Shown here: positions 41,972 to 61,014 of the stretch, piece after piece
How positions within the stretch are numbered: the stretch's first letter is position 1
Layout: each line of letters starts with the position of its first letter
Made by a program: the position numbers and the translations under genes
Origin: Escherichia phage ECML-10
Direction: 5' to 3' (one strand)
DNA length: 64,000 nucleotides
Sequence record: OL631479.1
The notes under the pieces: generated by a model
Database searches by the model: none
Seen by the model: the letters and a program-made list of their open reading frames with translations, nothing else
Told to the model about the DNA's origin: nothing

Positions 41972-42254
41972 GAGACCTGTAAAAGAGAAATTCGATAAGA
42001 CAGCTTTTGTATTCGATACACCTCTGGACGACATCATTAGAGGTATGCAATCATTGTATCGGAAGGCTGAATCTGAGCAGCTGTCGGAATCAGAACTTTA
42101 CTGGCTCGGTTGGTGGGAGTTAAACCTGCCTAAAGCTGAAAGTTCTTCTCTGAGAACTGTTAAAACGTGCGCCCAAGAAAACGCTGCACTTGGAATCTAC
42201 CACAAAAGGAAAAGATCAACAAAAAGCTCTCCAAGAAAGACTAAAAAGTCTTGA
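41961..42254 (+). CDS. Hypothetical protein
   Basis: 97 aa ORF with basic C-terminus. Confidence 0.25.
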   Translation: MMAKRPVKEKFDKTAFVFDTPLDDIIRGMQSLYRKAESEQLSESELYWLGWWELNLPKAESSSLRTVKTCAQENAALGIYHKRKRSTKSSPRKTKKS

Positions 42255-42280
42255 CAAAAGTGTTATTAATCTGATATTAT
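42251..42280 (+). promoter_or_regulatory. Sigma70-like promoter (TTGACA-N18-TATTAT)
   Basis: Consensus -35; member of recurring GTTGACAAA...AGATATTATCGG family. Confidence 0.5.
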
Positions 42281-42313
42281 CGGTCAGATATCTATAAACT
42301 AGGAGAACTAGAT

Positions 42314-42622
42314 ATGCTTAAAATTTTTATTGTTGAAGATAAAGATATTGTCCAGTTGTATGCAAACGAGAATCATAAAGGTATGATTCTGAAGAAGGCA
42401 AGCAACCTTCATGAAAACACAATTCAACCTGGCGATGTAATTAAGATCTGTGGTTATATGATACCAGACTCCTTGATGAAAATAACCCACCACTGGGGGT
42501 CTAATCCGTTCCTTTTTGAAAAGTATTGGGATGTTGAGTCACTTATTGCAGAGAGTGATGATGCATTCCATTACAGCATCCAACCATCTTGCAGAATAAC
42601 TAACAGGAGGGTCTTTGAGTAG
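42314..42622 (+). CDS. Hypothetical protein
   Basis: 102 aa ORF with RBS AGGAGAA. Confidence 0.3.
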   Translation: MLKIFIVEDKDIVQLYANENHKGMILKKASNLHENTIQPGDVIKICGYMIPDSLMKITHHWGSNPFLFEKYWDVESLIAESDDAFHYSIQPSCRITNRRVFE

Positions 42623-43754
42623 AGAATATCCACTTATTGAGTCCATAGATTGTCTGGCTGATCTTCTTGAACCTGACGCTATAGTTTATTATGACTTCGA
42701 TCAGGTTGCATATCAAGCTGCAGCAAGTTGTGAAAAAAGGACAATTGAGGTAACACACAAAGCCTCCGGACGTAAGAAGATGTTTAAAACACGAACAGAG
42801 TTCTGGGGGCGGCAGAAGAACACAGTTGGTGGTTGGTTAAAAGCTGAGAATACCAACCGTGAAGCTGCATGTAAAAAGGCTGGCAAGGAGTTTATTCCGT
42901 GGACACGAGAAGATTTCGATGTCTTGGATATCCAAACCCCTGATCCTGTAGAGAACTGCTTGCACACAATTAAGTGTAAAGCGAATGCAGTCCTTAATTA
43001 TCTCGGTATTCCGGAAGATCGGTGCGTGGGGGTACTTGGAGGCACAGGTAATTTCAGACTAGATCTTCCCATGCCGGAAAGATATAAAGCCAACCGTAAC
43101 AATACTCTTCGACCACTGCTGCTTGGAGATGCAAGACAGTATCTCCAAAAGCAGTATAATGCTCAAGTGATCAACGGTATCGAGGCTGACGACTGGTTAG
43201 CTATCCAGCAATTTGAAGGTTGGAACCACTACCAAAAAACAGGTAAGTTCAACAAGTTTATTATCTCTATTGATAAGGACCAAAGAACACTGCCGGGGCT
43301 TGTGTTCGATCCCATGCGAAACGATAAGGGAGATTTTGTAAGGGAAACCCCTATGCTGATCGATAACGGTATGGGGAACATCTTCATGAAGCCTAATGGA
43401 GAGGTTGGTGGTTACGGAATGCTGTTCTTCGGATACCAAATGCTGTGTGGTGACTCTGCCGACAATATCAAGCCGTATCAAGGACTTATCGGTAAGGGTA
43501 AGTTCGGGGATGCCTCAGCATTCTACCTACTGTCTCAGTGCAGCACTCCAAAGGAGATGTGGGTGGCTATTATTGATCAGTACAAGAAGTGGTTCCCGAA
43601 AGGTGTTGTTAAGTATACTGACTTCAATGGTGTTGATCGTAGAATTTCCGTAGGTCAATGGATGAGTATAATTTTTGACTGTTTGTATATGAAGCGAACA
43701 TTCAATGATCAAACAAAACTTGTTAACGTTCTTAGAAATGTTGGAGCAATTTGA
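42615..43754 (+). CDS. 5'-3' exonuclease / flap endonuclease
   Basis: GIEADDWLA and LCGDSADNIKPYQGLIGKGKFGDAS (H3TH-like) motifs. Confidence 0.65.
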   Translation: MSREYPLIESIDCLADLLEPDAIVYYDFDQVAYQAAASCEKRTIEVTHKASGRKKMFKTRTEFWGRQKNTVGGWLKAENTNREAACKKAGKEFIPWTREDFDVLDIQTPDPVENCLHTIKCKANAVLNYLGIPEDRCVGVLGGTGNFRLDLPMPERYKANRNNTLRPLLLGDARQYLQKQYNAQVINGIEADDWLAIQQFEGWNHYQKTGKFNKFIISIDKDQRTLPGLVFDPMRNDKGDFVRETPMLIDNGMGNIFMKPNGEVGGYGMLFFGYQMLCGDSADNIKPYQGLIGKGKFGDASAFYLLSQCSTPKEMWVAIIDQYKKWFPKGVVKYTDFNGVDRRISVGQWMSIIFDCLYMKRTFNDQTKLVNVLRNVGAI

Positions 43755-44086
43755 TGACTAAAAATTCTGTAGATAGTGCAATTATGGAAGCTGTTTTTGA
43801 GGATGATCATACAACAGGGACACTTAAAACAAAAAATACATTCGTTGTTGCCACAGGTATGTGGCGGTTGTATGAAGATGACACCATTTCATACATCCTG
43901 TACACTGATGATTACGCAGATGACCGTGTATGGTCTGCTGTTTTAAAAGAGGATTGTGAACTGATTGAGGGCGAGCGGTTATGCATGTTCCCCAGTGTGG
44001 AAACAGATGTTAAGCTTTGCTCTCTCGTCTTGTTCAAAGATAAGGCTTATGCTCCTGATGAAGGAGAGGAGGATGAGGAAGTATGA
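43751..44086 (+). CDS. Hypothetical acidic protein
   Basis: 111 aa ORF, overlapping start/stop with neighbours. Confidence 0.25.
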   Translation: MMTKNSVDSAIMEAVFEDDHTTGTLKTKNTFVVATGMWRLYEDDTISYILYTDDYADDRVWSAVLKEDCELIEGERLCMFPSVETDVKLCSLVLFKDKAYAPDEGEEDEEV

Positions 44087-44712
44087 GAGAGCGTCTATTA
44101 TCCATAGACCAGTCGTTGACACACACAGCTTGCGTTGTATGGGACGATGGAAAGCCTGTTCATAAGGTTGTGTTACGAACTCAAAGCTCATCTGCAAAAG
44201 AGAAGAAACCAGGGACGGTTTCTTTTGCAACAGCTGCTGAGCGTATTGACTGGATCTGCAAACAGGTCAGATATTATATCCACACGCACGGAGTTGACAC
44301 CGTGGTTATGGAAGGACTTTCCTTCGGATCTCGCGGGGATGCCACACGTGAACTGGCTGGGTTGTTTTACGGTCTCGAAGTTATGCTTTGGGATGCTTTA
44401 GCTGATTGTGAAAATGACGGCCTGTTTAAGGTTCACACAGTGACACCAACAACTGCCAAAAAGTTTGCTCGTAGTCATCTTCCTGAAGAACTTGCTTTTG
44501 AGGAGAAGAAAAAGCTTGACAAAAAGACAGGTAAAGAGCATACTGTGAAGAAACCTGTTACGATGGATAAAAAGTTGATGGTTAAGGCCTGCGAAGTATC
44601 TGAACCAGGGTTCCTAGATGGGATCAATTTGGTACAAGGTAAGGCCGATCTCGCAGATGCTTATTGGATAGGCAGGGCGCATCTGGAGGGGTTATCGCAA
44701 AGCGTAAAATAA
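44083..44712 (+). CDS. RuvC-like Holliday junction resolvase
   Basis: N-terminal LLSIDQSLTHTACVVWDDGK and C-terminal KADLADAYWIGRAH resemble RuvC motifs. Confidence 0.5.
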   Translation: MRERLLSIDQSLTHTACVVWDDGKPVHKVVLRTQSSSAKEKKPGTVSFATAAERIDWICKQVRYYIHTHGVDTVVMEGLSFGSRGDATRELAGLFYGLEVMLWDALADCENDGLFKVHTVTPTTAKKFARSHLPEELAFEEKKKLDKKTGKEHTVKKPVTMDKKLMVKACEVSEPGFLDGINLVQGKADLADAYWIGRAHLEGLSQSVK

Positions 44713-45269
44713 GAAAGAAAGCTGTCAAAGCCCCCGTTCATAGCGGGTGGCTAAAAGATTCTAAGGACATAGCCAACTTTCGAAAAGAATTGTCAGAGGA
44801 GCAGGATGGTCTTGATCCGATCTTGTGCGAGCCACTTCGTAAGCCTTGTTTAGATCATGATCATCTGACTGGTCGTTGCAGGGGTGTTTTGTCTCAGTGC
44901 ACTAATACCTTTGAGGGGTATGTGCTTAAATACTGGATGAAATACTGTAACGAGTATACAGATTGCAGTTTATCAGAGGCGTTGCGCCGGATGGCTGACT
45001 ATCTGGAGAAAGACTACAGCGACTTCCCGCTCCACAAAAACTACAGAGATGATATGACAAAGTTCTTGAGGAGATGCTCTAAAGCTACGATTATTGCACG
45101 AGCAGAATCAGATCTCAATCTTGTCATTAATCCAGAGTGCACCAAGCATGAGGCTATTGAGTCCTACATGCAGGAGTTTATAAAGAAAACTGAGGAGAGA
45201 GATTTCTATGGGGATGAAAAAGGTATTCAATCCTTGCGACTCAGTCCTGATCAGGATGAAATACCGTAA
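44664..45269 (+). CDS. Endonuclease VII-like (T4 gp49-type) resolvase
   Basis: CLDHDHLTGRCRGVLSQCTN motif; start uncertain (TTG 44664 overlapping upstream gene, no early in-frame ATG). Confidence 0.65.
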   Translation: MDRQGASGGVIAKRKIRKKAVKAPVHSGWLKDSKDIANFRKELSEEQDGLDPILCEPLRKPCLDHDHLTGRCRGVLSQCTNTFEGYVLKYWMKYCNEYTDCSLSEALRRMADYLEKDYSDFPLHKNYRDDMTKFLRRCSKATIIARAESDLNLVINPECTKHEAIESYMQEFIKKTEERDFYGDEKGIQSLRLSPDQDEIP

Positions 45270-45429
45270 CTGGAAAGGTGTTGTTGCAGATCGCTGCGTT
45301 ACTGAGCCTAATTTATGGTTTGGCTCTACAGAGTATCATAAAGAAGAGCAGTGGTTGATGCATGCCTTTGATGTAGACAAGGGCGAATATCGTGACTTCG
45401 CTTTAAAAGACATTCTTCAGTTTTACTAA
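45208..45429 (+). CDS. Hypothetical small protein
   Basis: 73 aa ORF overlapping 3' end of preceding gene in another frame. Confidence 0.2.
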   Translation: MGMKKVFNPCDSVLIRMKYRNWKGVVADRCVTEPNLWFGSTEYHKEEQWLMHAFDVDKGEYRDFALKDILQFY

Positions 45430-45441
45430 GGAATTTTGACG

Positions 45442-46425
45442 ATGATGGCAAAGTTAACTCTTGAGCAAATTTTAACACTAAAGCAGCAGGGATACACTAA
45501 TAGACAAATTGCTCGTGAATTTTTAGGCCGTGAGTCACGTGAGAGTTGGATCCGACTACAGCTTAAACGTGCACAAGAGAATATGTCAGAGATTGTAGGA
45601 GAAGCAACGGAGCGCTTCCTTGAAGAACACAAAGGAGCTAAAGTTTGGGTGTATGATACAGAAACATCACCAACAAACGGCTGGTTCTTTGGGCACTATA
45701 AGACCAACATTCAAACCTGCGGTATTGAAATTATGCCCTATATGCTAACTTTCGCAGGTAAGTGGTTAGACAGTCCTAGTGTGGTTGACTGCGCTCTTCC
45801 CGATTACAAAATGTGGGATGAGGATATTCACAATGACCTCGAATTGATTCAGGACTTGTGGTATTATCTGGATAAATGTGATGTCGCAGTAGCCCACAAT
45901 TCAGGTTTTGACTGTGGGTGGGCAAACCAACGATTTGCATTTCACGGGTTGCCTCCAACAAGCCCATACAAAGAGGTTGACACCCTTAAAATGATCAAGA
46001 AGGCATTCCGTTTGAATGCAAACACTTTGGAGTATGCATGCAAATACTTCCAACTTGCCAGACAGAAACTGATTGACCACACATTTGAAATGTGGATCAA
46101 GTGTGTTCATGGTGATCTTGAGGCGTTTAAACAGATGCGGGAGTACAATGTTGGTGATATCCTATCTCTGGAAGGCCTGTATTTGCTGGCACGCCCGTTT
46201 GCTAAGCAGCACCCCAACATGTCATTGTACTACCAGGATGAGGAGCCAAAAGTTCGTTGCCCACGCTGCGGTGGAGAACACCTTCACGAGGAAGAAGCTT
46301 TGGCGTATACTCAACTGAGTGCATTTAAAACATATCGCTGCGAAGGTTGTGGATCTGTTGTTCGTGACCGTAACAACATCCGTACCAGAGAAGAAATGAA
46401 AAACACCCTGATTCAGATAATCTAA
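45442..46425 (+). CDS. HTH / DEDD-family 3'-5' exonuclease / Zn-ribbon fusion protein
   Basis: N-terminal HTH-like LKQQGYTNRQIAREF; VWVYDTETSP, AHNSGFD, EYNVGD exonuclease motifs; C-terminal CPRCG...CEGCG. Confidence 0.5.
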   Translation: MMAKLTLEQILTLKQQGYTNRQIAREFLGRESRESWIRLQLKRAQENMSEIVGEATERFLEEHKGAKVWVYDTETSPTNGWFFGHYKTNIQTCGIEIMPYMLTFAGKWLDSPSVVDCALPDYKMWDEDIHNDLELIQDLWYYLDKCDVAVAHNSGFDCGWANQRFAFHGLPPTSPYKEVDTLKMIKKAFRLNANTLEYACKYFQLARQKLIDHTFEMWIKCVHGDLEAFKQMREYNVGDILSLEGLYLLARPFAKQHPNMSLYYQDEEPKVRCPRCGGEHLHEEEALAYTQLSAFKTYRCEGCGSVVRDRNNIRTREEMKNTLIQII

Positions 46426-46434
46426 TCAAGTATA

Positions 46435-46462
46435 GGGAGGCTTGCGCCTCCCTTTTCCTTTT
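46435..46462 (+). terminator. Rho-independent terminator
   Basis: Hairpin GGGAGGC-UUGC-GCCUCCC followed by UUUUCCUUUU. Confidence 0.5.
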
Positions 46463-46471
46463 GGAGGCACT

Positions 46472-47290
46472 TTGAGCAAGAAAGAGTCCAACGACAAATA
46501 TTACACAAACCCTGAGTATGCAGAATATCTTGTTGGTAAAGTAAAAGATAAGTATGGAAATTGTGCATACGTTGAGCCTTCTGCTGGAAGGGGTTCTTTT
46601 TCAAAACTATTTTCAGAGATACTGTCTTACGATCTAGTACCAGATCCTGAATTTGAAGGACCAACACCGTGCATTCAGGCAAACTTCTTGGAGGTGCATC
46701 CCAAGGCAGATGTCTTCATAGGTAACCCACCATTTGGCAAGAATTCATCTTTAGCTTGCAAATTCTTTAACCATTGTGCATCATTGCTAGAGCTTGGAGG
46801 GGCTATAGCCTTCATCTTGCCACGGACATTTGAAAAAATATTTTTTGCAAACAAACTGGACATGTCGATGCACCTTGTCTACAGTGAAAGGTGCCCTAAG
46901 AACTCGTTTCTACTTAATGGCAAACCTTATGACGTGCCGTGTGTTTTCCAAATTTGGGAGAAAAAGGCGTGCAACAGGGATCCTGTAGAGATTGGGGAGA
47001 ATAAGTTATTTTCTTTTAGCACTCCAGATGACTACGACTTCTGTGTAAGACGTGTTGGGTATAATGCTGGAAAAGTATTGGGGGAGGATGACCCAAAATC
47101 TGAAGAATCAACATATTTCATAAAATCTTTAGTTGACGGTGTTGACAGAGTGTTTGCTGAATGCTATTCTTCTTTTCAAGAAGAAGCAGGTAAGACTGCC
47201 GGAATGAAGAGTATAGGTAAGAAAGAACTACAATACATTTTGGAGACTAGGTATGATCAAAAGCATAGACTTGACCAAAGAACTTACTGA
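46472..47290 (+). CDS. N6-adenine DNA methyltransferase
   Basis: Motif I-like VEPSAGRGSF and motif IV NPPFG; start TTG 46472 after GGAGG (no early in-frame ATG). Confidence 0.6.
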   Translation: MSKKESNDKYYTNPEYAEYLVGKVKDKYGNCAYVEPSAGRGSFSKLFSEILSYDLVPDPEFEGPTPCIQANFLEVHPKADVFIGNPPFGKNSSLACKFFNHCASLLELGGAIAFILPRTFEKIFFANKLDMSMHLVYSERCPKNSFLLNGKPYDVPCVFQIWEKKACNRDPVEIGENKLFSFSTPDDYDFCVRRVGYNAGKVLGEDDPKSEESTYFIKSLVDGVDRVFAECYSSFQEEAGKTAGMKSIGKKELQYILETRYDQKHRLDQRTY

Positions 47291-47711
47291 TGCAAAAGCT
47301 TTTGGTGAGACAGCGGTACAAAGGGGGCAGGCGATGGGACTGGCACTACCTTTCGTATTAAAAGAGCACTTTACAGATTTTCAACTTATCAAGGGTGATA
47401 AGGGAATGCTTATCCTGGAGCATAAGTTGAGTAAGAAACGCTATAAAGTTGTTTTTAATTCTAAAGCTCCAACAAAACTGGGATTCAGAACTTACAATCT
47501 TAACCCATCCTACACTAAGGGTGTTGGAAGGGTAGAACAACAGCATTTCAGTGCCAGAGCTTCTTTAGCCCCTTTGATGCTAAATTTCTCAGGGGTGGCT
47601 TTAGGATACCTTGATAAGAAAAGAGTTCTTCATGTCCGTTTCACAGACTTTGTAACGCTTCTAGCCAACAACGAGGTTGATGAAAAGGGACGTGTAAAAA
47701 CAAACTTCTAA
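47253..47711 (+). CDS. Hypothetical protein
   Basis: 152 aa ORF overlapping end of methyltransferase gene. Confidence 0.3.
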   Translation: MIKSIDLTKELTDAKAFGETAVQRGQAMGLALPFVLKEHFTDFQLIKGDKGMLILEHKLSKKRYKVVFNSKAPTKLGFRTYNLNPSYTKGVGRVEQQHFSARASLAPLMLNFSGVALGYLDKKRVLHVRFTDFVTLLANNEVDEKGRVKTNF

Positions 47712-47738
47712 TAACGCATAGTATGATTGGAGAACGCA

Positions 47739-47930
47739 ATGACACTAAAGTTAACAATTCCAGACAGCTTTTCAGAAGACTTTATCCCAGAAATGATGGG
47801 TAAGATGCGATCATTGCTTGATCAGATCGAGGAAGCTGTTTGGGAAGACGATGCTGTAGTGGCTAACGAGCTGGTAGATAAGTGTAAAAGTATTATTGAT
47901 GCAGTTGAAGAATACCACGGAGGTTTTTGA
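47739..47930 (+). CDS. Hypothetical small acidic protein
   Basis: ATG 47739 with RBS GGAGAA. Confidence 0.25.
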   Translation: MTLKLTIPDSFSEDFIPEMMGKMRSLLDQIEEAVWEDDAVVANELVDKCKSIIDAVEEYHGGF

Positions 47931-48544
47931 TGGATATTATTGTTCTTAACGCCCCACCCAGCAGTGGTAAGGATCACATTGCAGATCTCTTGTTGGAAGC
48001 TATTCCTAACTCACACCACCGTGAGGTTAAGGAGATGCTCTTCAGTGTGGCAATTAAGGCAGCTGGTGTAACTCCTCAACTCTGGAATGCACTTTATGAC
48101 CGCCACTACAAAGAAGAGCCTTGCCCTTTCTTAATGATAGACGGCAAGCATGTTTCTCCGCGAGAATGGATGATCCATTGTAGTGAAAATCTGATTAAAC
48201 CTATCTTTGGTGAAGATGCTTTCGGTAAAGCCGCAGTCGCATCTTTGAAGAAAGATTTCCCTAAAGGTAAAGGGGTTGTTGTTTACTCCGATGGTGGATT
48301 CAAAGAGGAGCTGGCATGCCTTAGCGAGTACGCGTACAGCACAGGTGGAGATCTGTTGTTGTTCCGTATTCACCGTGTCGGATATGACTGGGGAAATGAT
48401 TCCAGAACCTATCTAAGTCTGGAAAAGAACGGAATAAAAGGAATTGAGTTCGATGTTGTAAACCCTGAAGGTGCACCTTGGGAATGTGCATCGGAGATTG
48501 TGTGCAAGTATATTGATGCTAAAGAGGCCCAAGAAGAATGTTAA
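47930..48544 (+). CDS. Putative deoxynucleoside monophosphate kinase
   Basis: N-terminal P-loop variant NAPPSSGKD resembling T4 gp1-type kinases; RBS GGAGG. Confidence 0.4.
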   Translation: MDIIVLNAPPSSGKDHIADLLLEAIPNSHHREVKEMLFSVAIKAAGVTPQLWNALYDRHYKEEPCPFLMIDGKHVSPREWMIHCSENLIKPIFGEDAFGKAAVASLKKDFPKGKGVVVYSDGGFKEELACLSEYAYSTGGDLLLFRIHRVGYDWGNDSRTYLSLEKNGIKGIEFDVVNPEGAPWECASEIVCKYIDAKEAQEEC

Positions 48545-49131
48545 TCGGTATTGATGTAGATTTGACACTGGTAGATTCAGGAACAGCATGGTGGGAGTGG
48601 TTGGAGCGTTTATATGGTCCAGCCAGTAAGACAGTCACTAAACCTTCTAATGGGTTAATGTATTACGATCTGTCAAAGTATTGGCCTGATCGCCCCAAAG
48701 AAAACATCATAGGGCCTTTTGATTTCTGGAGTGACCCGTTCCTCTACGACTTTCTTAAGCCTGAAGAGGGGGCTATTGAGGTTATGAAAGATTTGGTGGC
48801 TCGTGGTCACAAGCTTGCATTTATCTCGGTATGCAAGAAAGGTCACCTTGCATCTAAATCAAGGTTCTTAAAGCGTTGGACTAGTGATTTTATGGATCTG
48901 GACGATCACACCCAGGGTCACGGCTTCTACGCCACGCATTTCAAGGGAAATGTGGCTGTAGATGTTATAATTGACGACAGGCATGAATACCTGAACCAAT
49001 TCGCTTCACGCCCTGAAGTTATTAAAATCCTAAAAGATACGCCTTATGAGCAATTTGAGGAGTTAAAGGTTAGTGTTGACTATACCGCTAATAGCTGGTA
49101 TAAAATAGGAAAGTTTTTAGAAGGTATTTGA
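48538..49131 (+). CDS. HAD-family phosphatase / 5'-nucleotidase-like
   Basis: N-terminal HAD motif I IGIDVDLTLV. Confidence 0.45.
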   Translation: MLIGIDVDLTLVDSGTAWWEWLERLYGPASKTVTKPSNGLMYYDLSKYWPDRPKENIIGPFDFWSDPFLYDFLKPEEGAIEVMKDLVARGHKLAFISVCKKGHLASKSRFLKRWTSDFMDLDDHTQGHGFYATHFKGNVAVDVIIDDRHEYLNQFASRPEVIKILKDTPYEQFEELKVSVDYTANSWYKIGKFLEGI

Positions 49132-49132
49132 A

Positions 49133-49333
49133 ATGGGCAGATGTTCTAAAGGTGGCGATCCTGTAGTCAGATACGGTGACTGGCTAGAGGTGTATGATCT
49201 GGGAGGTAAGCTGGTGTATGCCTCCAGGATCACCCAAGACATGTGCTCCGATATGTTCAACAGATACCTTGCATTTAAGGCCAACATAAACCCAGACGAA
49301 ATTTCCAAAATTAAAACAAGGAGAGCTAAATAA
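49133..49333 (+). CDS. Hypothetical small protein
   Basis: 66 aa ORF tightly packed between neighbours. Confidence 0.25.
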   Translation: MGRCSKGGDPVVRYGDWLEVYDLGGKLVYASRITQDMCSDMFNRYLAFKANINPDEISKIKTRRAK

Positions 49334-50316
49334 TGCTAAAACTGTGCACTGCAAAGATCATTGCTGACAGCATTTCCGAGAAAGGTAAGCGCATCACAAC
49401 TTTTGAGCTAGAGTATCCTCGAATTATTCACTCAGAGCTTATGACGCACCGAGTGTTCAGCCGAAACGCCATGTCTTCCCGTGCAGTGCCTGTCGGAAAG
49501 ATGCTGCAACAGATTGTGGAGAATCCGGCAATGCCAGTTCGCTTCGGTGTAAATAAGCGAGGAATGGAAGATGGTGGGGAACACGATCAAAAGATCCGTG
49601 TAGAGTACACTGATATGGAGCTAACTCCGGAAGAGTTTTGGAAAGAAGCTGCAAAAAACGCCGCTTGGCATGCAGAGAAGTTTGCCCTTGCTGGTTACCA
49701 TAAGCAAGTATGTAACCGCTTAGTGGAGCCTTTTCAGCGCATGAAAACAGTTGTAACAAGCACCGAGTGGAATAATTTTTTCCACCTCCGTTGCTGGCAC
49801 GATGCGGATCCTACGATTCAGATGTTAGCTAATTGTATGTGGGAGGCTCTTGTGAATAGCACTCCTGAAATCCTTAAACCGGGTCAATGGCACACTCCAT
49901 ATGTAGAGCACGTTTATTTGGACGGGGAGTTTAACTACGCTGTACGTGACACAGAAGGAAAGCTCTGCATTCTCGATACTAAAGAAGCTCTGTCTATCAG
50001 TGCTAGTTGCTGTGCACAAGTATCTTATCGAAATATTGACAGCACGTTTGAAAAGGCAGACAGTGTGGCTAAAAAATTGATTGGTGGGGATCGTATTCAT
50101 GCAAGCCCTTACGAGCACCAGGCAACACCTATGGATCACGATAACGCAATGGAACGTTTAAACTACTACCTGTCTTCATGTGAAATCACACAAGACATCA
50201 GTACTTGGCAGGAAGGTGTAACCCATCAAGACCGTGATGGTAAATTCTGGTCTGCCAACTTTTGTGGGTGGGTTCAGCACAGACAACTGCTTAATAACCA
50301 CTTCGTGAAAGGTTAA
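49333..50316 (+). CDS. thyX: Flavin-dependent thymidylate synthase ThyX
   Basis: SELMTHRVFSRNAMSSRA matches ThyX signature (ELVRHRxxSxxxxSxR) as recalled. Confidence 0.7.
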   Translation: MLKLCTAKIIADSISEKGKRITTFELEYPRIIHSELMTHRVFSRNAMSSRAVPVGKMLQQIVENPAMPVRFGVNKRGMEDGGEHDQKIRVEYTDMELTPEEFWKEAAKNAAWHAEKFALAGYHKQVCNRLVEPFQRMKTVVTSTEWNNFFHLRCWHDADPTIQMLANCMWEALVNSTPEILKPGQWHTPYVEHVYLDGEFNYAVRDTEGKLCILDTKEALSISASCCAQVSYRNIDSTFEKADSVAKKLIGGDRIHASPYEHQATPMDHDNAMERLNYYLSSCEITQDISTWQEGVTHQDRDGKFWSANFCGWVQHRQLLNNHFVKG

Positions 50317-50317
50317 T

Positions 50318-50344: not shown

Positions 50345-50345
50345 G

Positions 50346-50876: not shown

Positions 50877-50886
50877 GGTGGTGAAG

Positions 50887-53429: not shown

Positions 53430-53436
53430 TTTTAAA

Positions 53437-53456
53437 GGGGCTTCGGCCCCATTTTA
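53437..53456 (+). terminator. Hairpin after nrdA (GGGGC-UUCG-GCCCC + AUUUUA)
   Basis: Short GC stem with UUCG loop and U-rich tail between nrdA and nrdB. Confidence 0.45.
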
Positions 53457-53468
53457 GAGGTTAGAATA

Positions 53469-54557
53469 ATGGCTGTATTTAATGCTGAGAACACCGCTCA
53501 TAAAACTGGTGACTATCCGCTGTTTCTAGGACAGCAAATGGGTATGTATGACTCTATCAACAAAAAATATCCACAACTGTTTGAACTATACAAAAAACAA
53601 AAAGAGCAAGATTGGGCAGAGGATGAAGTGGATTTGTCGCAATCTATTTCAGATTTTGTAACATGCTCCAAGTCAACTTATGACGTGATGGTGCAGACCT
53701 TGATGTGGCAATGGGAGGCTGATAGCGTTGCGGCAAGATCGATCATCTGCCTCTTTTCACCATTCATCACTAATAGTGAGCTTTTCACTCTATTGATGAA
53801 ACAGTCAGAGATTGAAGTTCTTCACGCACTAACTTACTCAGAGATTGTTAGACAATGCCTCCCCAATGCCCGTGAGATTATAGAAGAGATTCAGGAAAAC
53901 CAAAACGTTCTGAGCAGATCTGGCGTTATTGTCAAATACATGCAAGAGCTCGAGGTTATTGGTGCAAAATACCGACTGGATCCTTCTAGTGTTGAAGAAG
54001 ATGTTGTGCGGAAATGCATTCTTAGAGCGCTTTTTGCACTTTTAGCCCTGGAAAGTATTGAGTTTATTGCAAGTTTTGCATGCACTTTCGCAGTAGCTGA
54101 ACAGGGTATCTTTGTTCAGGTGGCGCAGCTTGTTCAAAAAATCATGCTTGACGAAATGCTACATTCGAAAGGTGATTTTGCCATCATTGATATCCTGCTT
54201 AATGATCCCACATGGGAGAAAAGCTTCCTTGAGATAAAGGGGGAGTTAAAAGAGATTCTTGATGAAGTACGAACCAAAGAGTACGGTTGGAGTGACTATA
54301 TTTTCAGCGAAGGAAGGGCGATTATAGGTCTTAACTCACCGTTGCTTAAAGAATGGGTTGACTATAACTGCTCACCGATTTATGATTACTACGACATCGA
54401 CAAAGACTTTGTGCCGCCAACAAAGGACCCGCTACCGTTTATGCAGGTGTGGATGAAACCTTCATTGCAACAGACGGCGAACCAAGAAATGTCGAACACT
54501 GACTACCGCGTCAACACAACTGTTAACGACGCTGAAGAAGAAATTTGGGAGTTTTAA
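53469..54557 (+). CDS. nrdB: Ribonucleotide reductase class Ia beta subunit NrdB
   Basis: 362 aa ferritin-like protein directly after nrdA; acidic aromatic C-terminal tail (EEEIWEF). Confidence 0.85.
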   Translation: MAVFNAENTAHKTGDYPLFLGQQMGMYDSINKKYPQLFELYKKQKEQDWAEDEVDLSQSISDFVTCSKSTYDVMVQTLMWQWEADSVAARSIICLFSPFITNSELFTLLMKQSEIEVLHALTYSEIVRQCLPNAREIIEEIQENQNVLSRSGVIVKYMQELEVIGAKYRLDPSSVEEDVVRKCILRALFALLALESIEFIASFACTFAVAEQGIFVQVAQLVQKIMLDEMLHSKGDFAIIDILLNDPTWEKSFLEIKGELKEILDEVRTKEYGWSDYIFSEGRAIIGLNSPLLKEWVDYNCSPIYDYYDIDKDFVPPTKDPLPFMQVWMKPSLQQTANQEMSNTDYRVNTTVNDAEEEIWEF

Positions 54558-54560
54558 TAT

Positions 54561-54839
54561 ATGAGCTGCGAAAAATCTTTTTTCATCATCATTTACGGTA
54601 AGGATAACTGCCCACATTGTGTCAGAGCAAAAGAATTTGCAATCAGCAAAGGTCTGCCTTTTGTATATAAGACACTTGGCGAGGGCTACACAAAAGAAGA
54701 GCTTATTGAGAAGTGTAGTCCAATCGTCCCCCGAACGTTGCCGCAGATCTTCTTAGAAAGCGATCTTGACAGTATCCATATAGGCGGTGCCGACGATTTC
54801 ATCTCTTTTGTTAAGAATGGTTTTGGAGAGAAAAAGTGA
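54561..54839 (+). CDS. Glutaredoxin-like protein
   Basis: 92 aa; CPHC redox motif; between nrdB and nrdD. Confidence 0.75.
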   Translation: MSCEKSFFIIIYGKDNCPHCVRAKEFAISKGLPFVYKTLGEGYTKEELIEKCSPIVPRTLPQIFLESDLDSIHIGGADDFISFVKNGFGEKK

Positions 54840-55699
54840 AAGTTGTAAAACGGGACGGTAGAGAAGAGTTCTATAACGGAATTAAGGTGATCAAGGCGGC
54901 AGAGTCCGCCTTATTTGAGTCTGGACATACTGAAGAAGAAGCTTACCGGATCGCCTGCGAGGTTAATGAAGTTGTTGCTAACAATCTACCAACCGACCAG
55001 TGCACGATCTCTGTAAAAAATATCCATATCCTTGTTGAAGACGCTCTTATGGATATGGGTTTAAAATGTGCAGCCAGAGAATACATCCAGTATAGGCAGA
55101 CAAGAGATAATAACAGAGAGGCAGGTGGAAAACTGCTCGCAGATATTAGTGGCTTCTTGGATCGCACTTGTGATGAATTTACAAAAGAAAACGCAAATAA
55201 GCCTACCAATCATGTACACACTCATCGTGACCTGCTTGCAGGCATCCTTAGCAAACACCTTGCATCAACACAGATCCTGCCAGACCGTGTCTCAGAAGAG
55301 CACAATAAAGGCTTCATCCATGTGCATGATCTTGACTACTTGATCAGTCCGTTAACAAACTGTTGTTTGGTAAATTATCCAGATATGTTGGAAAACGGAT
55401 TCAACATTGGTAACGCCCATGTCAGTAAGCCGAAGTCAATAGGGGTTGCAACAACAATCCTTAGCCAAATCTCTAGTGCGGTAGCTAGTGCTCAATATGG
55501 GGGTCAGACTATGAGCCATATTGATCATTATCTGGCACAGTATGCTGAAGCGACCTATGAGAAGAACCTTAAATTTTGCCAGGAACATTGGTTGCCAGAT
55601 GCTGAGACTGTTGCAATGCAAATGACAGATAAAGACGTATTTGACAGTATGCAGACATTACTTTATCAAATCAACACGTTAACCTCTGTCAACGGTTAA
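54836..55699 (+). CDS. nrdD: Anaerobic ribonucleotide reductase NrdD, N-terminal part (putative exon 1)
   Basis: ATP-cone-like N-terminus MKVVKRDGREEFYNGIKV; ORF ends at in-frame stop presumably inside intron. Confidence 0.75.
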   Translation: MKVVKRDGREEFYNGIKVIKAAESALFESGHTEEEAYRIACEVNEVVANNLPTDQCTISVKNIHILVEDALMDMGLKCAAREYIQYRQTRDNNREAGGKLLADISGFLDRTCDEFTKENANKPTNHVHTHRDLLAGILSKHLASTQILPDRVSEEHNKGFIHVHDLDYLISPLTNCCLVNYPDMLENGFNIGNAHVSKPKSIGVATTILSQISSAVASAQYGGQTMSHIDHYLAQYAEATYEKNLKFCQEHWLPDAETVAMQMTDKDVFDSMQTLLYQINTLTSVNG

Positions 55700-56547
55700 C
55701 AAACTGGCCGTTGTAAAACTCTCCTAACCTCATAAGAGGGGTCGGTAAATCCGGCTAACGGGGAACGCTAAGGCGAAAGCTATGCCAATCCCGTGACTAG
55801 TTCTTACAGGAGTTGGAACGGTTGTAACGACTAACGAAAGGCAGAGATGCTTGACAAACATTTCTGAACCAAGTAGTGTAGGGGTTAGTTGAAATACTAA
55901 CTTCGAAATGGAGAGGCTCTATGAAAAAGATCATTCTTAATGGTGAAGAATCAAACTATGTGATTGATGAGGTTGGAAACGTATACGGAAAACGTGGAAT
56001 GCTACACCCAATATTGTGGGGAGGTTATGGAAAAGGTAACAAGCATGTTAAACGCCGTTATATGTACTCTTTCAACCACAAAGGTAAAAAGATTCGAATC
56101 CAAACCTCAAGGATTGTTGCCTTGTATTGTTTGCCGGATGTCCCAGAAGACCCTGAAAACTGGGAAGTGAATCATAAAGATGGCAATACATTGAATGATC
56201 ATCCGTCTAACCTAGAGTGGGTTTTGCCGGAAGATAATAAGAGACATGCTTTCCGAACAGGACTTTGTCCAGGTAAGTGCTATAGGAAAGTGCAGGCATA
56301 CAAAGGGAAAACCTTGGTGGGTGAATATCCTTCACTCTATGCCTGTGCAAAAGCCTTAAATTTGAACGTAGGTAACGTTCATAGGGCTATCGAAGGAAAT
56401 GCCGAAGGTAAGCATCTCACAATAAAGGGTTATTATCTTATTGAAGTAGAGTAAGAGATAGTCTGGCCCTGTGGAAACACAGGGAGGAGACAGCAGACTC
56501 CATTCATCACATTAAGTTTAGGACTGGATACCTCGGTCTTTGGTAGA
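55700..56547 (+). other. Putative group I intron in nrdD carrying an HNH ORF
   Basis: ~850 bp between the two nrdD parts with ~220 nt structured leader before the HNH ORF. Boundaries approximate. Confidence 0.5.
55921..56454 (+). CDS. HNH homing endonuclease (intron-encoded)
   Basis: 177 aa; HNH motif VNHKDGNTLNDHPSNLEWVLPEDN. Confidence 0.8.
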   Translation: MKKIILNGEESNYVIDEVGNVYGKRGMLHPILWGGYGKGNKHVKRRYMYSFNHKGKKIRIQTSRIVALYCLPDVPEDPENWEVNHKDGNTLNDHPSNLEWVLPEDNKRHAFRTGLCPGKCYRKVQAYKGKTLVGEYPSLYACAKALNLNVGNVHRAIEGNAEGKHLTIKGYYLIEVE

Positions 56548-57756
56548 ATGATTACCAAAAACTACTTGAAAGTCCACAAAATGGGTCTTGGTGAAGAACG
56601 TATCACACCTGTGTTCCCTAAAGTGCTGTTCTTCCTAGAAGAGGGTGTCAACATGAACCCTGGAGATCCTAACTATGATTTGAAACGATTAGCTCTGGAA
56701 TGCTCTGCAGAGCGGATTTATCCTGACTTTGTTTCTGTTCCACTAAATCGTAAAGTGACAGGCTCGACAGATGGTAAAGTAACGAGCATGGGTTGCCGGA
56801 GTTTTCTTAGCAAATACAATGACTTGGAAACAGGCGAGGAGAAATACCTTGGTAGATTTAACTTAGGCGTTGTTAGCCTTAACCTGCCAATGATTGCGGC
56901 AAAAGCTAAGACGGAAGGTGTTGATTTCTTTGCCGTTCTTGACGAGTATCTGGATTTGGCATATGAAGCTCACCTTGTAAGGGTTAACCGTCTGAAAGGC
57001 ACCAAAGCAGGGCAGAACCCTATCATGTGGTGTGAAGGCGCTCTTGCTCGCCTGGATCCTGAAGAGAGTATTGATAAACTCTTCTATGACGGGTACGCTT
57101 CCATCAGTATTGGGTATATTGGTGTGTATGAAACCTGTCAGATTTTGGGCAGGGAGGGTGACAAGGCTTTAGCTCTTGGAATACTTCAGCACATGAGAGA
57201 TGCTTGTGAGCGATACAAGAAGGAAAGTAGACTAGCGTTTAGCTTGTACGGCACCCCTTCTGAGAGTCTATGCTATAAAGCTGCAACCTGTCTGGATCGT
57301 GAATATCCTGAAGTGTTGAAGCACGAGCATGAATATCTCACCAACAGTTTCCATCAGCCAGTATGGATCAATAGCTCTCCTTTTGATAAGTGGGAGTATG
57401 AGGAAGGTTTTGCTATGATCTCCTCTGGTGGCAACATCGGATACGTAGAGACACCAAATCTGAAAAACAACTTAGATGCTTTGGAAGCTCTTGTTGATTT
57501 CGGATATAAACACATTATGTATTTTGGTATCAACCAGCCTGTGGATAAATGTCTCAAGTGTGGTTTCTCTGGTGAGTTCAGTGCAACAGCTAAAGGCTTT
57601 GTATGCCCAGAGTGCGGAAACCATGAAGAGGGAACGATCAGCGTAATTCGACGTGTGTCTGGATACCTTTCCAGTCCTAACTCTCGTCCTTACAATAAAG
57701 GTAAGCAAGCGGAAGTTATCGAGCGAGTTAAGCACTACGGAAGTTGTGGTTGCTGA
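56548..57756 (+). CDS. nrdD: Anaerobic ribonucleotide reductase NrdD, C-terminal part (putative exon 2)
   Basis: Glycyl-radical motif RRVSGYLS near C-terminus; Zn-ribbon CLKCG...CPECG. Confidence 0.8.
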   Translation: MITKNYLKVHKMGLGEERITPVFPKVLFFLEEGVNMNPGDPNYDLKRLALECSAERIYPDFVSVPLNRKVTGSTDGKVTSMGCRSFLSKYNDLETGEEKYLGRFNLGVVSLNLPMIAAKAKTEGVDFFAVLDEYLDLAYEAHLVRVNRLKGTKAGQNPIMWCEGALARLDPEESIDKLFYDGYASISIGYIGVYETCQILGREGDKALALGILQHMRDACERYKKESRLAFSLYGTPSESLCYKAATCLDREYPEVLKHEHEYLTNSFHQPVWINSSPFDKWEYEEGFAMISSGGNIGYVETPNLKNNLDALEALVDFGYKHIMYFGINQPVDKCLKCGFSGEFSATAKGFVCPECGNHEEGTISVIRRVSGYLSSPNSRPYNKGKQAEVIERVKHYGSCGC

Positions 57757-57822
57757 TACTTGACAAAAGCCACAAGGATGTGGCACACTTAGTTCAAAGA
57801 TTAGAGCTAAGAAGGTTCAGCA

Positions 57823-58950
57823 GTGTCCAGAAAACTTACAACAGATGAGTTTATAAAGAGGGCAAAAGCAGTTCATGGAGATAAGTATGATTACTCTAAG
57901 GTTGAGTATGTAAATGCCTGCACCAAGGTTATAATTATCTGCCCATATCATGGAGAATTTGAACAAGCTACCCACCAACACCTTGCAGGACGAGGCTGCC
58001 GGGAATGTGGAAAGCTAAAAATGGCACAAAGCCACATTATACCACATAAGGAGTGGTTGAATGTTATCCAAGAGGTCAATCCTTATGTCGAAGTGATTGG
58101 AGAAATAATAAGCTGCAGAACAAAAGTGCCGTGCCGCTGCAAAATTTGCAGTCATGAATGGTCAGCAATGCCTTATCTTCTTAAACAAGGACATGGGTGC
58201 CCTAGATGCGGCAAGCTAAAATTCGCACAAAGCAGAGCTATAGCCCATACCGAGTGGGTCGAGGACATAACGAAGAAAAATACATATATTGAAATAGTAG
58301 AAAGGGTTAAAAATAGCGATACACCAGTATTGGCACGATGCAAAATTTGTAGTCATGAATGGTTAGCAAGACCATCCCATCTTAAACGAGGGCATGGGTG
58401 CCCTAGATGTAAAGGCAATGCAAAGAGATCCCATGTGGAATGGGTAGGGCATATAAAGGTTGTCAATCCAAGTATTAAAGTGCTTGGAAAAATTAAAAAC
58501 GGCAGTGCAAAAGTATTATGTAGGTGTAAGATTTGTGATTATGAATGGTCTCCTGCTCCTATTAGGCTCAAGCAAGGACATGGGTGCCCTAGATGTGCTA
58601 ACTACGGCTTTTTATCGTACAATCACGGCAAACTTTACATTATGGTTGATGACTTAGAAGTACCAACACTTATGAAGATCGGTATTAGCGTCAGTGTCGA
58701 AGAGAGAAAAGATAGGATATTGAAAAGTGCCAAAAGGGCAGGGGTAGGTATTTATGATCTCTACCTGGCGAAAACGTGGGAAGGATCAACTCAAAACATG
58801 GCAGATTTAGAAAAATCTGTGCATAAGGCCTTCAGCAAGTATAAAATAAACTTCCCTGTAAAATTTGATGGTAGCACAGAATTCTTCTACTACAGGCCTG
58901 AAGTGTTTGACACGGTGGAAGAAGTATACAGGAAGATTTGTGGTAAATGA
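57823..58950 (+). CDS. Zinc-finger repeat protein with C-terminal GIY-YIG/T5orf172-like domain (putative nuclease)
   Basis: Four ~60-aa repeats (C-x-C-K-I-C...HEW...GHGCPRC) also visible as nucleotide repeats; C-terminal KLYIMVDD...MKIGIS; GTG start. Confidence 0.35.
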   Translation: MSRKLTTDEFIKRAKAVHGDKYDYSKVEYVNACTKVIIICPYHGEFEQATHQHLAGRGCRECGKLKMAQSHIIPHKEWLNVIQEVNPYVEVIGEIISCRTKVPCRCKICSHEWSAMPYLLKQGHGCPRCGKLKFAQSRAIAHTEWVEDITKKNTYIEIVERVKNSDTPVLARCKICSHEWLARPSHLKRGHGCPRCKGNAKRSHVEWVGHIKVVNPSIKVLGKIKNGSAKVLCRCKICDYEWSPAPIRLKQGHGCPRCANYGFLSYNHGKLYIMVDDLEVPTLMKIGISVSVEERKDRILKSAKRAGVGIYDLYLAKTWEGSTQNMADLEKSVHKAFSKYKINFPVKFDGSTEFFYYRPEVFDTVEEVYRKICGK

Positions 58951-59002
58951 TCGTAGAAAGATATGCATATCTTAAATATGCTATTAACTAAGGAGGTTCA
59001 GT

Positions 59003-59119
59003 ATGTCATCGGGTATCTATAAAATCTGCAAGTGCGGTTGTCATTGTAATCTTCGTTGGTGCAAGGCACTGGACGATTTTATTTGGCATTGCCCTAAATG
59101 TGATGCGGAGTATCTATGA
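59003..59119 (+). CDS. Small Cys-rich zinc-ribbon-like protein (38 aa), not in ORF track
   Basis: RBS AAGGAGG 7 nt before ATG; MSSGIYKICKCGCHCNLRWCKALDDFIWHCPKCDAEYL; stop overlaps nrdG ATG. Confidence 0.4.
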   Translation: MSSGIYKICKCGCHCNLRWCKALDDFIWHCPKCDAEYL

Positions 59120-59589
59120 ACATTGCCGGATACACAGAAATATCTTACACCGAAGGGCCAGGTATTAGAACTGCCTTATGGGTATCTGGGTGCCCACACG
59201 CCTGCCCTGGTTGCTTTAATCAGGCATTTTGGTCAAAAGATAAAGGAAGAGAGTTCACTGAAGAAGACTTGCAAAAAATCTTGTCAGATTTAGATAACCC
59301 GTCTGTGTGCGGTATCTCTCTGCTGGGTGGAGAACCCTTAGCATACTATAATGAGCCAGATATTATTAACCTGATGGAGAAAATTAAGGAAAAATTTGGT
59401 GACAAGAAAACTATTCTTGTATATACTGGGTTCACATTTGACCATATCTCTAGCGATGTTCTTAAACTGGCTGATATCATCATTGACGGTAAGTATGTAA
59501 AAGATTTACCAACCAAGAAACCGTTCCGAGGTAGCGATAACCAAAGAATGTTTAAAAAAGTATCAGGCGGTTGGGTTCAGGTAGACTAG
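59116..59589 (+). CDS. nrdG: Anaerobic ribonucleotide reductase activating protein NrdG
   Basis: 157 aa; radical-SAM CxxxCxxC motif CPHACPGC. Confidence 0.8.
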   Translation: MNIAGYTEISYTEGPGIRTALWVSGCPHACPGCFNQAFWSKDKGREFTEEDLQKILSDLDNPSVCGISLLGGEPLAYYNEPDIINLMEKIKEKFGDKKTILVYTGFTFDHISSDVLKLADIIIDGKYVKDLPTKKPFRGSDNQRMFKKVSGGWVQVD

Positions 59590-59592
59590 TTG

Positions 59593-59622
59593 TTGACAAA
59601 GCTTTGTTTAGATAGGTATAAT
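59593..59622 (+). promoter_or_regulatory. Sigma70-like promoter (TTGACA-N18-TATAAT)
   Basis: Consensus hexamers; same family as 42251, 50346, 60986. Confidence 0.6.
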
Positions 59623-59653
59623 TATCGTAAAATGAAAGCAGAGGAGGTGCCAA

Positions 59654-59767
59654 ATGGCTAAAAAAGCCTTGAAGAAGGCGTACAAGAAAGAGATTGCGCT
59701 TGAGCTTAAGAAAAAACACAAGCGTGAAAAGAAACATCATGAGGATGAAGAGGGGGTGCAACAGTGA
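59654..59767 (+). CDS. Small Lys-rich basic protein (37 aa), not in ORF track
   Basis: RBS GAGGAGG; MAKKALKKAYKKEIALELKKKHKREKKHHEDEEGVQQ; stop overlaps GTG start of next ORF. Confidence 0.35.
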   Translation: MAKKALKKAYKKEIALELKKKHKREKKHHEDEEGVQQ

Positions 59768-60114
59768 CACAAGAACGTATCGATTTGGCTAATAAGTTTG
59801 TAGATCTCATTTTGCCACGGTTAGTTACTCAACATGCAGACGCTATTTCTACTAATCTTGATGGCTTACGTCTAATGCTAAATCGCACAGATGACCCTCG
59901 TATTCGGGCTGATTTAGAAGCCTCTGCCAACAAACTGGAAAAGTTCTTGCAAGTAGATACGCAAGAAGCCTTACACAAGATTATGGTGGAAGGTTTCTCT
60001 AAAGAATTTACCATTAAAGAGCTTAAGGAGCTGATCCACCAAGAAGAGATGAATATCCGAGTTCAGGCTGTTGCAAGCAGCATGGAGGCGGCTATTGAAA
60101 AACTGTTGCAGTAA
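59764..60114 (+). CDS. Hypothetical protein
   Basis: 116 aa helical ORF, GTG start. Confidence 0.3.
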   Translation: MTQERIDLANKFVDLILPRLVTQHADAISTNLDGLRLMLNRTDDPRIRADLEASANKLEKFLQVDTQEALHKIMVEGFSKEFTIKELKELIHQEEMNIRVQAVASSMEAAIEKLLQ

Positions 60115-60152
60115 AAGTACTTGGCACATCTCAATCTGAAAGGAGTCCCAAC

Positions 60153-60941
60153 ATGGGTCGAGCTAAAGAAACAAAACGCATGCGTGATGAAGCTAGAGAG
60201 GCTCGCAAATCTGATCGCCTGCGTAAGGCTGCTGAGAAATTTGCTGACGAACGAGAGCACACCGCTCCAGCTCTCCGACCAATGAATAAAAAGCAGCAAA
60301 AGTATCTTGATTATCTAGGGTCACGTAAGATTATTATTGTAAACGGTGTGTTTGGATCCGGTAAGACATTCATGGCATCTGCATATGCAGGTGATCTTCT
60401 GCGTAAGAATGAGATTGATAAGATCATTGTTGCACGTCCTTATGTACAGACCGGAAAATCAAGCGGATACAAACCGGGAACGTCAATGCAGAAGCTTTGG
60501 CCTTACCTTCGTAGTATGATGGACACGATTTGTCGTCGTGTTGGCAAAGGTGCTTTTGCCGCAATGCTGGGAGACGGTCAGAACAGCCGTATCGAGATTT
60601 GTGAAGTTGAAAGCATTCGTGGTCGTAGTTTCGATGAGCGATGCTTTGTCCTGATTGACGAGGCACAGCAAACTAACCCTGAAGAAATGTTGTCAATTAT
60701 CACAAGGATCTCTGATCAGGCCACCCTTGTAATTATGGGCGATAATAGCCAACGTGACATCCCTGGTAAATCTGGCCTTGCATGGGTGACGGATTTCTTT
60801 ACTCGTCATCCAGATCCTGAGGTTGGAATGATCAGCTTTGATAGTCCAGACGATGTCGTTCGTTCCGGGTTGGGTCGTCAGATTGCACTCAATCTTATTG
60901 AGGATCGTGCAAATCATATTTGGACCCCTGTTTCCGAGTAA
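60153..60941 (+). CDS. phoH: PhoH-like ATPase
   Basis: 262 aa; Walker A GVFGSGKTF and PhoH-like downstream motifs. Confidence 0.85.
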   Translation: MGRAKETKRMRDEAREARKSDRLRKAAEKFADEREHTAPALRPMNKKQQKYLDYLGSRKIIIVNGVFGSGKTFMASAYAGDLLRKNEIDKIIVARPYVQTGKSSGYKPGTSMQKLWPYLRSMMDTICRRVGKGAFAAMLGDGQNSRIEICEVESIRGRSFDERCFVLIDEAQQTNPEEMLSIITRISDQATLVIMGDNSQRDIPGKSGLAWVTDFFTRHPDPEVGMISFDSPDDVVRSGLGRQIALNLIEDRANHIWTPVSE

Positions 60942-60985
60942 TACAGAAGGGTGGTTATTCCACCCTTAAATATCTAAAACAGTTG

Positions 60986-61014
60986 TTGACAAATAGGCAA
61001 GCTTTAGATATTAT
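60986..61014 (+). promoter_or_regulatory. Sigma70-like promoter (TTGACA-N17-TATTAT)
   Basis: Follows hairpin 60947-60967; -10 context GATATTATTATCGG resembles promoter at 42251. Confidence 0.55.

Follow-up and report, generated by a model that had tools for sequence, protein, structure and literature searches.

Near-consensus sigma-70-type promoters along the DNA-metabolism arm of an rV5-like coliphage are orthologues of promoters predicted in rV5

We examined a set of predicted promoters in a 64,000-nucleotide stretch of DNA from Escherichia phage ECML-10 (OL631479.1; the whole stretch is called the window below). Based on GC skew and the layout of open reading frames (ORFs), genes lie on the minus strand up to ~35.0 kb, among them structural genes and a tRNA cluster at 30.1-31.1 kb, and on the plus strand from 35.1 kb onward. 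The plus-strand arm encodes RNA ligase, Sir2, DNA ligase, endolysin, exonuclease, ThyX, NrdAB, glutaredoxin, NrdDG, PhoH, and a ClpP-like protease. Using megablast, we find that more than 100 Vequintavirus (rV5-like) coliphage genomes match positions 42000-62000 at 95-99% identity, with rV5_ev146 as the best match (98.9% identity), and on this identity we assign the window to an rV5-like coliphage (Vequintavirus). A preliminary description of this DNA had proposed a recurring family of early promoters, with near-consensus members at 42251, 50346, 59593, and 60986 and a diverged member at 35055. Coordinates of these sites refer to the first base of the -35 hexamer, and matches are counted over the 12 positions of TTGACA-N17/18-TATAAT. 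The four near-consensus sites are as follows:

42251-42280, plus strand: orthologue of rV5 P93; TTGACA-18-TATTAT, 11/12 matches, with a TGn extended -10
50346-50374, plus strand: orthologue of rV5 P107 (labelled P106 in RefSeq); TTGACT-17-TATAAT, 11/12 matches; with upstream context, TGTTGACT-17-TATAAT
59593-59622, plus strand: orthologue of rV5 P118; TTGACA-18-TATAAT, 12/12 matches; with context, TGTTGACA-18-TATAAT
60986-61014, plus strand: orthologue of rV5 P121; TTGACA-17-TATTAT, 11/12 matches; with context, AAAA-N4-TGTTGACA-17-TATTAT

The near-consensus promoters described at these positions are indeed there, each with 11 or 12 matches. The -35 hexamer is perfect (6/6) at 42251, 59593, and 60986, as it is at 35055, and 5/6 at 50346. 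The -10 hexamers (TATTAT, TATAAT, TATAAT, and TATTAT, in order) all have A at position 2 and T at position 6, and the spacers of 18, 17, 18, and 17 bp fall within the 17 +/- 1 bp expected of sigma-70 promoters. All four sites lie at gene boundaries and point in the direction of the gene; intergenic or boundary DNA makes up about 5% of the arm. The putative promoter at 42251 heads a 102-aa ORF (at 42314) and the exonuclease operon. The site at 50346 lies downstream of thyX and ahead of gene 107 (ATG at 50415), gene 108, and nrdA, and the site at 59593 comes directly after the nrdG stop, ahead of a small ORF at 59654, gene 119, and phoH. Lastly, the site at 60986 follows phoH and precedes gene 121 (ATG at 61043) and the ClpP-like protease gene. 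The distance to the ribosome binding site, originally given as 20-40 bp, is roughly right: we measure 12-30 nt between the -10 and a GGAG-type Shine-Dalgarno sequence at all four sites. At P93 the TGA stop (42252-42254) of an upstream ORF (41961-42254) falls within the -35 hexamer TTGACA.

These promoters are already known. The four sites correspond to P93, P107, P118, and P121 of rV5, with the same gene boundaries, hexamers, and spacing. The rV5 genome paper predicted 33 promoters and 20 terminators (Kropinski et al. 2013, Virol J 10:76, PMC3606486); its Table S4 lists P093 (CTAAAAAGTC TTGACAAAAGTGTTATTAATCTGATATTAT), P107, P118, and P121, and the RefSeq record NC_011041 carries P93, P106, P118, and P121 as "Sigma70-type promoter" features. 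The rV5 promoter regions are 93-98% identical to those in the window. Among a few spacer substitutions, one distinguishes P118 in rV5 (TAAGTTGG) from P118 in the window (TAGATAGG), and P93 reads ATCGTT in rV5 and ATCGGT in the window. The rV5 and window promoter sets are both computational predictions. The observation that these four sites look like promoters is therefore correct but ordinary, as they were predicted in 2013 and are annotated in RefSeq.

What the family has in common beyond its hexamers can be read from the 31 rV5 promoters that we located in the genome. A G precedes TTGAC (position -36) in 17 of the 31 (p = 5e-5), with T one base further upstream in 15; the stretch from -39 to -45 is rich in A, and 16 of the promoters have G at -14 (as in TGn). 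The GTTGACA(A) context of the -35 proposed in the preliminary description thus reflects a family-wide tendency, and we find its G at 50346, 59593, 60986, and 35055, where TGTTGAC starts at 50344, 59591, 60984, and 35053; it fails at 42251, which has C before TTGAC (GTCTTGAC). An A directly follows the -35 hexamer at all four flagged sites. In most respects this resembles the canonical E. coli sigma-70 promoter with an UP element, an extended -10, or both: TTGACA and TATAAT separated by 17 +/- 1 bp, an A-rich upstream region, and a TGn that offsets a weaker -10. It differs in that the rV5-like family prefers G at -36. E. coli promoter compilations favour TCTTGACAT.

A closely similar element has been published for Certrevirus, whose putative early promoter is AAAA(N3-4)TGTTGAC(N17-19)TATAAT (Buttimer et al. 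2020, Antibiotics 9:352, PMC7344957). It occurs mostly in a region of small ORFs, with some copies near replication and nucleotide-metabolism genes, and its early timing was inferred from gene content (PMC7344957). The sites at 50346, 59593, 60986, and 35055 share its TGTTGAC, and the site at 60986 has the full AAAA-N4-TGTTGAC form. The flagged sites also have a TATAAT-like -10, and sites of this kind are likewise found near nucleotide-metabolism genes. This site (60976-60990) is the sole match to AAAA(N3-5)TGTTGAC in the window; elsewhere 42251 has AAAAA-N3-TTGAC, 50346 has TTTT instead, and 59593 has no A-tract. Certrevirus is a different genus (a sister genus within the Vequintavirinae) with a different host, and its main small-ORF early region lies outside the window. 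The GTTGACA extension holds and is published for this sister genus. The family signature appears to be an A-tract and (T)G-TTGACA with an optional TGn, without AGATA or ATCGG.

We next turned to more diverged relatives, taking orthologous loci from IMG/VR by their flanking proteins (54-98% identity). In a seven-sequence alignment of P118 (PhoH identity 83-98%), all six -35 positions and five of the six -10 positions are invariant compared with 8 of 18 in the spacer, and the spacing is 18 bp throughout. For P121, AAAA and TGTTGACAA are invariant, as are six of six -35 and four of six -10 positions compared with 4 of 17 in the spacer, and the spacing is always 17 bp. At P93 in relative L089, eight of nine consecutive spacer bases are changed and AAAAAGTCTTGACAAAAG, TCTG-TATTATC, and the 18-nt spacing are kept. 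Directly behind thyX, relatives whose ThyX is 54-88% identical have a promoter in the position of P107; the MAFFT alignment misaligned the hexamers of these distant orthologues, and a listing anchored on the -35 was used in its place. Spacer length is identical in every orthologue examined for P93, P118, P121, and P082 (the candidate at 35055). Because the hexamers and the spacer length are conserved while the spacer sequence is free to vary, this footprint is the one to be expected of a sigma-70 promoter.

Could such matches be accidental, or a by-product of coding and composition bias, without any function as promoters? TGTTGAC is common on the coding strand overall (32 in the window versus 12 expected, many inside genes), and consensus scans return many matches of 9 or 10 out of 12, near the shuffle expectation. 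However, the window contains eight sites with at least 11 of 12 matches, all co-directional with the local genes, as compared to 1.3 +/- 1.15 expected, and none of 200 dinucleotide-preserving shuffles reached eight (maximum 6). Similarly, TGTTGAC(N17-20)TAnnnT occurs 10 times versus 0.75 expected, always co-directional with genes, and TTGAC-N14-16-TGnTAnnnT occurs 13 times versus 0.6 expected, with 12 of the 13 co-directional. Conditioning on occurrences of TTGAC takes out codon-usage effects: on the coding strand 12 of 113 TTGAC are coupled to a correctly spaced TGnTAnnnT versus 0.73 expected (p = 1.4e-11), and on the non-coding strand only 1 of 59. The flagged sites are also intergenic, and their hexamers and spacing persist in diverged relatives in which the spacers have been replaced. 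On the shuffles and the conditional coupling test we reject a chance origin, and we give this explanation practically no weight. A different possibility is that the four sites form a distinct subclass in which AGATA and TTATCG(G) are bound by a phage factor, such as an activator of middle transcription, or define a special discriminator or initial transcribed region. The preliminary description had included an AGATA element in or just before the -10 and a following ATCGG or ATCG in its consensus. AGATA does lie within 45 nt of all four sites, TTATCG occurs at three, and 59593 and 60986 have GTTGTTGACAAA, AGCTTT, TTAGATA, and TATCG in common. Furthermore, when 5000 quartets were picked at random from the remaining 27 rV5 promoters, none had as many 5-mers in common as the flagged four. 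Against this, 25% of shuffles with the same AT-rich composition also produce a 5-mer present at all four sites, and AGATA has no common register: relative to the first base of the -10 it lies at +11, -8, -7, and -3. ATCG stands at +4, +7, and +7, with none at P107. Among the 31 rV5 promoters AGATA is found in four and ATCGG in two. The motifs are also lost in orthologues that keep hexamers and spacing: P118 of rV5 and of L005 lacks AGATA; P118 and P121 of L006-L008, P093 of L089, and P107 of L009 lack both motifs; and ATCG(G) is not conserved in L005-L008 or L089. AGATA-like words moreover resemble degenerate -10 hexamers (GATAAT, GATATT). Our reading of the data is that the similarity within the quartet would reflect composition and degenerate -10-like words rather than a motif, and a distinct subclass seems to us highly improbable. 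As consensus elements, AGATA and ATCGG are rejected on register, on frequency among the 31 promoters, on comparison with shuffles and random quartets, and on the orthologue alignments.

On the strength of their match to the consensus, their enrichment, orientation, and position, and their evolutionary footprint, we propose that the four flagged sites very probably serve as promoters for the E. coli RNA polymerase sigma-70 holoenzyme in its unmodified form, and that 35055 probably does as well. From these observations we infer that the holoenzyme recognises the sites, where transcription starts, and that the sites are active from the outset of infection. Sigma region 4 would bind (T)G-TTGACA and region 2 the TATAAT-like hexamer 17-18 bp downstream, and transcription would start ~7 nt past the -10 to give leaders of 20-40 nt with a strong Shine-Dalgarno sequence. 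The promoters would thereby add to transcription of the rightward arm, which serves DNA and nucleotide metabolism (exonuclease, gene 107-nrdA, phoH, and the ClpP-like protease). They belong to a genome-wide family of more than 30 predicted sigma-70-type promoters in rV5-like phages, whose marks are an upstream region rich in A, (T)G at -37/-36, and TGn where the -10 is weaker. The strong early promoters of lytic coliphages that depend on host RNA polymerase (T4 Pe, T5 early, lambda PL/PR) are near-consensus, have AT-rich upstream regions, and use the unmodified host polymerase. By analogy, the flagged sites may be of the same kind, as they have near-consensus host-type hexamers and AT-rich upstream regions. 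The rV5 and Certrevirus papers report neither homologues of T4 gp33/gp45/gp55 nor a phage RNA polymerase gene (PMC3606486, PMC7344957). The sites fit the 2013 proposal that rV5-like phages drive the DNA-metabolism arm from host-type promoters, to which they add little that is new.

Three points weigh against this interpretation. A literature search found no transcription start site map, RNA-seq, time-resolved transcriptome, or in vitro transcription for any Vequintavirus. The same promoter architecture stands ahead of structural (late) and tRNA genes on the minus strand, at 16803, 31576, and 32188, and therefore an exclusively "early" class is doubtful. Also, rV5 encodes an Srd-like putative anti-sigma decoy that could modulate promoter use (PMC3606486). 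The "early" timing is thus an assumption, and delayed-early or constitutive use appears equally compatible with the data. This alternative holds that the sites are functional sigma-70-type promoters that act in the middle (delayed-early) phase or are effectively constitutive instead of forming a dedicated early class, with output shaped mainly by upstream read-through and partial terminators. The sites precede nucleotide-metabolism genes, which have been treated as the likely middle region (PMC7344957), such promoters are densely arrayed in the small-ORF region beyond the window, the architecture ahead of the late and tRNA genes is identical, and the rV5 authors drew the same inference (PMC3606486). 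On the other hand, near-consensus promoters need no phage factor and should therefore fire on DNA entry. We regard middle or constitutive use as quite possible, though somewhat short of probable.

The preliminary description had also reported that several of the promoters follow hairpin terminators, giving insulated cassettes. The regions upstream of all flagged sites were folded and compared with canonical terminators; the hairpins of the arm are listed here together with a stem-loop in the gene-107 leader:

40417-40441, plus strand: terminator-like hairpin after the endolysin gene; -15.1 kcal/mol, tail UUUCUAC
46434-46453, plus strand: canonical intrinsic terminator, orthologue of rV5 t099
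50318-50334, plus strand: weak hairpin after the thyX stop, ahead of P107; -8.3 kcal/mol, tail UAACUUUUGU (CUUUUGUGU)
50377-50399, plus strand: stem-loop in the gene-107 leader; 9 bp, GC-rich, -15.2 kcal/mol, starting 3 nt past the P107 -10
53437-53450, plus strand: intrinsic terminator between nrdA and nrdB, orthologue of rV5 t109; GGGGCttcgGCCCC-AUUUU
60947-60967, plus strand: hairpin after the phoH stop, ahead of P121; -13.7 kcal/mol, tail UUAAAUAUC lacking a U-run
62476-62497, plus strand: intrinsic terminator after the ClpP-like gene, orthologue of rV5 t122

A hairpin precedes only two of the four promoters, P107 and P121, and neither is a canonical intrinsic terminator: that at 50318-50334 is a marginal terminator at best, both are missing from the rV5 terminator list, and relative L008 has a different hairpin at the position of 60947-60967. 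No hairpin was found before 42251 or 59593, where folding gives -1.8 and -1.5 kcal/mol, values that shuffled sequence reaches as well. The clear terminators lie elsewhere (~40417, 46434, 53437, and 62476), and none of the four is directly followed by a flagged promoter. The terminator-promoter cassette, which applies weakly and to two of four sites at most, is therefore rejected. Since no promoter follows the terminator at 53437-53450, expression of nrdB, grx, and nrdD needs read-through, and it is possible that this terminator is an attenuator that sets subunit ratios.

The stem-loop in the gene-107 leader begins a few nucleotides from the predicted transcription start of P107. Its structure is conserved across the Vequintavirinae, with a counterpart in every orthologous leader examined (L009 at 2547-2568, L011, L016, L017, and L018), of 7-9 bp and -13 to -16 kcal/mol; the sequences of these hairpins are unrelated and have no U-tract. 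The stem-loop could be a stabiliser at the 5' end of the mRNA or an operator for a phage regulator. In rV5 (L003), P144 and several promoters of the small-ORF region at 106-116 kb (P168, P174, P185, P192, and P194) have GC hairpins ~10 nt past the -10, for example GCGGGAaaacTTCCCGC. As a family-wide property such hairpins find no support among the 31 rV5 promoters: the mean minimum free energy of the 45 nt downstream is -6.5 kcal/mol versus -6.4 kcal/mol for random genome segments (p = 0.74). Leader hairpins are a feature of some promoters only (P107, P144, P168, P174, P185, and P194). That some promoters carry an extra conserved functional cis-element, for which the P107 stem-loop is the best candidate, or, in a weaker version, that the AGATA/TTATCG likeness marks a co-regulated subclass, strikes us as very unlikely.

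The diverged promoter at 35055 is plausible, and the scan for TTGAC with TGn picks up further putative members of the family. These are listed below, with the P081 orthologue on the opposite strand:

35023-35051, minus strand: P081 orthologue; TTGAAA-17-TATACT
35053-35083, plus strand: candidate P082, an extended -10 promoter for the RNA ligase gene; TGTTGACA-17-(TGTGg)CAGGAT, not annotated in rV5
35897-35926, plus strand: intragenic candidate; TGTTGACG-18-(TGg)TAAACT
36872-36900, plus strand: intragenic candidate; TGTTGACA-17-(TGa)TATGGT
39589-39616, plus strand: intragenic candidate in the ligase gene; TGTTGACA-16-(TGt)TAAAAT, 11/12 matches
41230-41258, plus strand: P90 orthologue; TTGACA-17-(TGg)TACTGT, the -10 weaker than the rV5 TATTTT
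47142-47170, plus strand: intragenic candidate; TGTTGACA-17-(TGc)TATTCT
49076-49104, plus strand: P105 orthologue within the 3' end of gene 104; TGTTGACT-17-(TGg)TATAAA
61263-61292, plus strand: intragenic candidate upstream of the ClpP-like gene; TGTTGACA-18-(TGg)TAGACT

The site at 35055 reads TTGACA-17-CAGGAT with TGg before the -10. When the intergenic region is aligned with that of L093 (RnlA 89% identical), most of it has diverged, and TCAAGTGTTGAC and TGTGTGGCA, separated by 17 bp, are the only conspicuous blocks without change. In the rV5 paper a pair of divergent promoters was anticipated between genes 81 and 82, of which P081 alone was listed (PMC3606486). Based on this alignment, we propose that 35055 is probably a conserved extended -10 promoter, P082, that was missed in rV5. 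P081 and P082 are back to back at the GC-skew switch, their -35 boxes 3 bp apart, and both are conserved in L093, where the minus strand at P081 reads TTGACA-17-TGgTAATAT. The true start of the RNA ligase gene is probably the ATG at 35116 or 35119 (MMKYFN), with GAGG upstream, rather than the 35095 annotated in relatives.

The same scan recovers the orthologues of the annotated promoters P90, P105, P51, P74, P75, P76, and P80. The intragenic sites at 35897, 36872, 39589, 47142, and 61263, of the form TGTTGAC...TGnTAnnnT, are not annotated in rV5 and may be internal promoters; as a class they are strongly enriched and strand-specific. At the place of the 61263 candidate, L006-L008 keep TTGACA-17-TGgTACATT. 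The 39589 candidate is present in FFH2 and not alignable in rV5, and we call it a promoter with low confidence. The putative late promoter of rV5, TggTAaAAtA (a TGGTAAAATA-type -10), is missing from the four flagged -10 regions, is found at 16803 (minus strand), and is resembled by 35897 (plus strand). For annotation of this genome, P93, P107, P118, and P121 can be transferred, and the conserved P082 and several intragenic extended -10 candidates can be added.

Several minor observations concern the surrounding genes. Between the endolysin terminator and P90, the window has a 253-aa ORF with a weak AP2-domain match (40465-41226, plus strand), and in rV5 and FFH2 P90 directly follows the endolysin gene. 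A 375-aa ORF between nrdD and nrdG (57823-58950, plus strand) has treble-clef zinc-finger (DUF4379/CapR) and T5orf172/MUG113 (GIY-YIG-like) domains. It is missing from FFH2 and most close relatives and accounts for a 6% gap in the megablast match; it is probably a mobile insertion of the homing-endonuclease type. Within nrdD, an HNH endonuclease gene (55921-56454; HNH_3, I-HmuI NUMOD-like) interrupts the reading frame at 55700-56547 (plus strand), with non-coding flanks of ~220 and ~90 nt. No Rfam intron family reaches its gathering score in this interruption, and an Rfam scan of the window returned tRNAs only. In the tRNA cluster, a 99-nt tRNA-like gene (30390-30488, minus strand) is assigned a 4-base anticodon (atcc) by ARAGORN and scores 35.5 bits against the Rfam tRNA model; the rV5 annotation has no tRNA at this place, between tRNA-Thr and tRNA-Ser. 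Lastly, about 20 GenBank records labelled "Campylobacter phage" (MG065646, MG065666, MG065682, and MG065690 among them) are ~97% identical to the coliphage region; probably either their host label is wrong or the DNA came from co-isolated coliphages.

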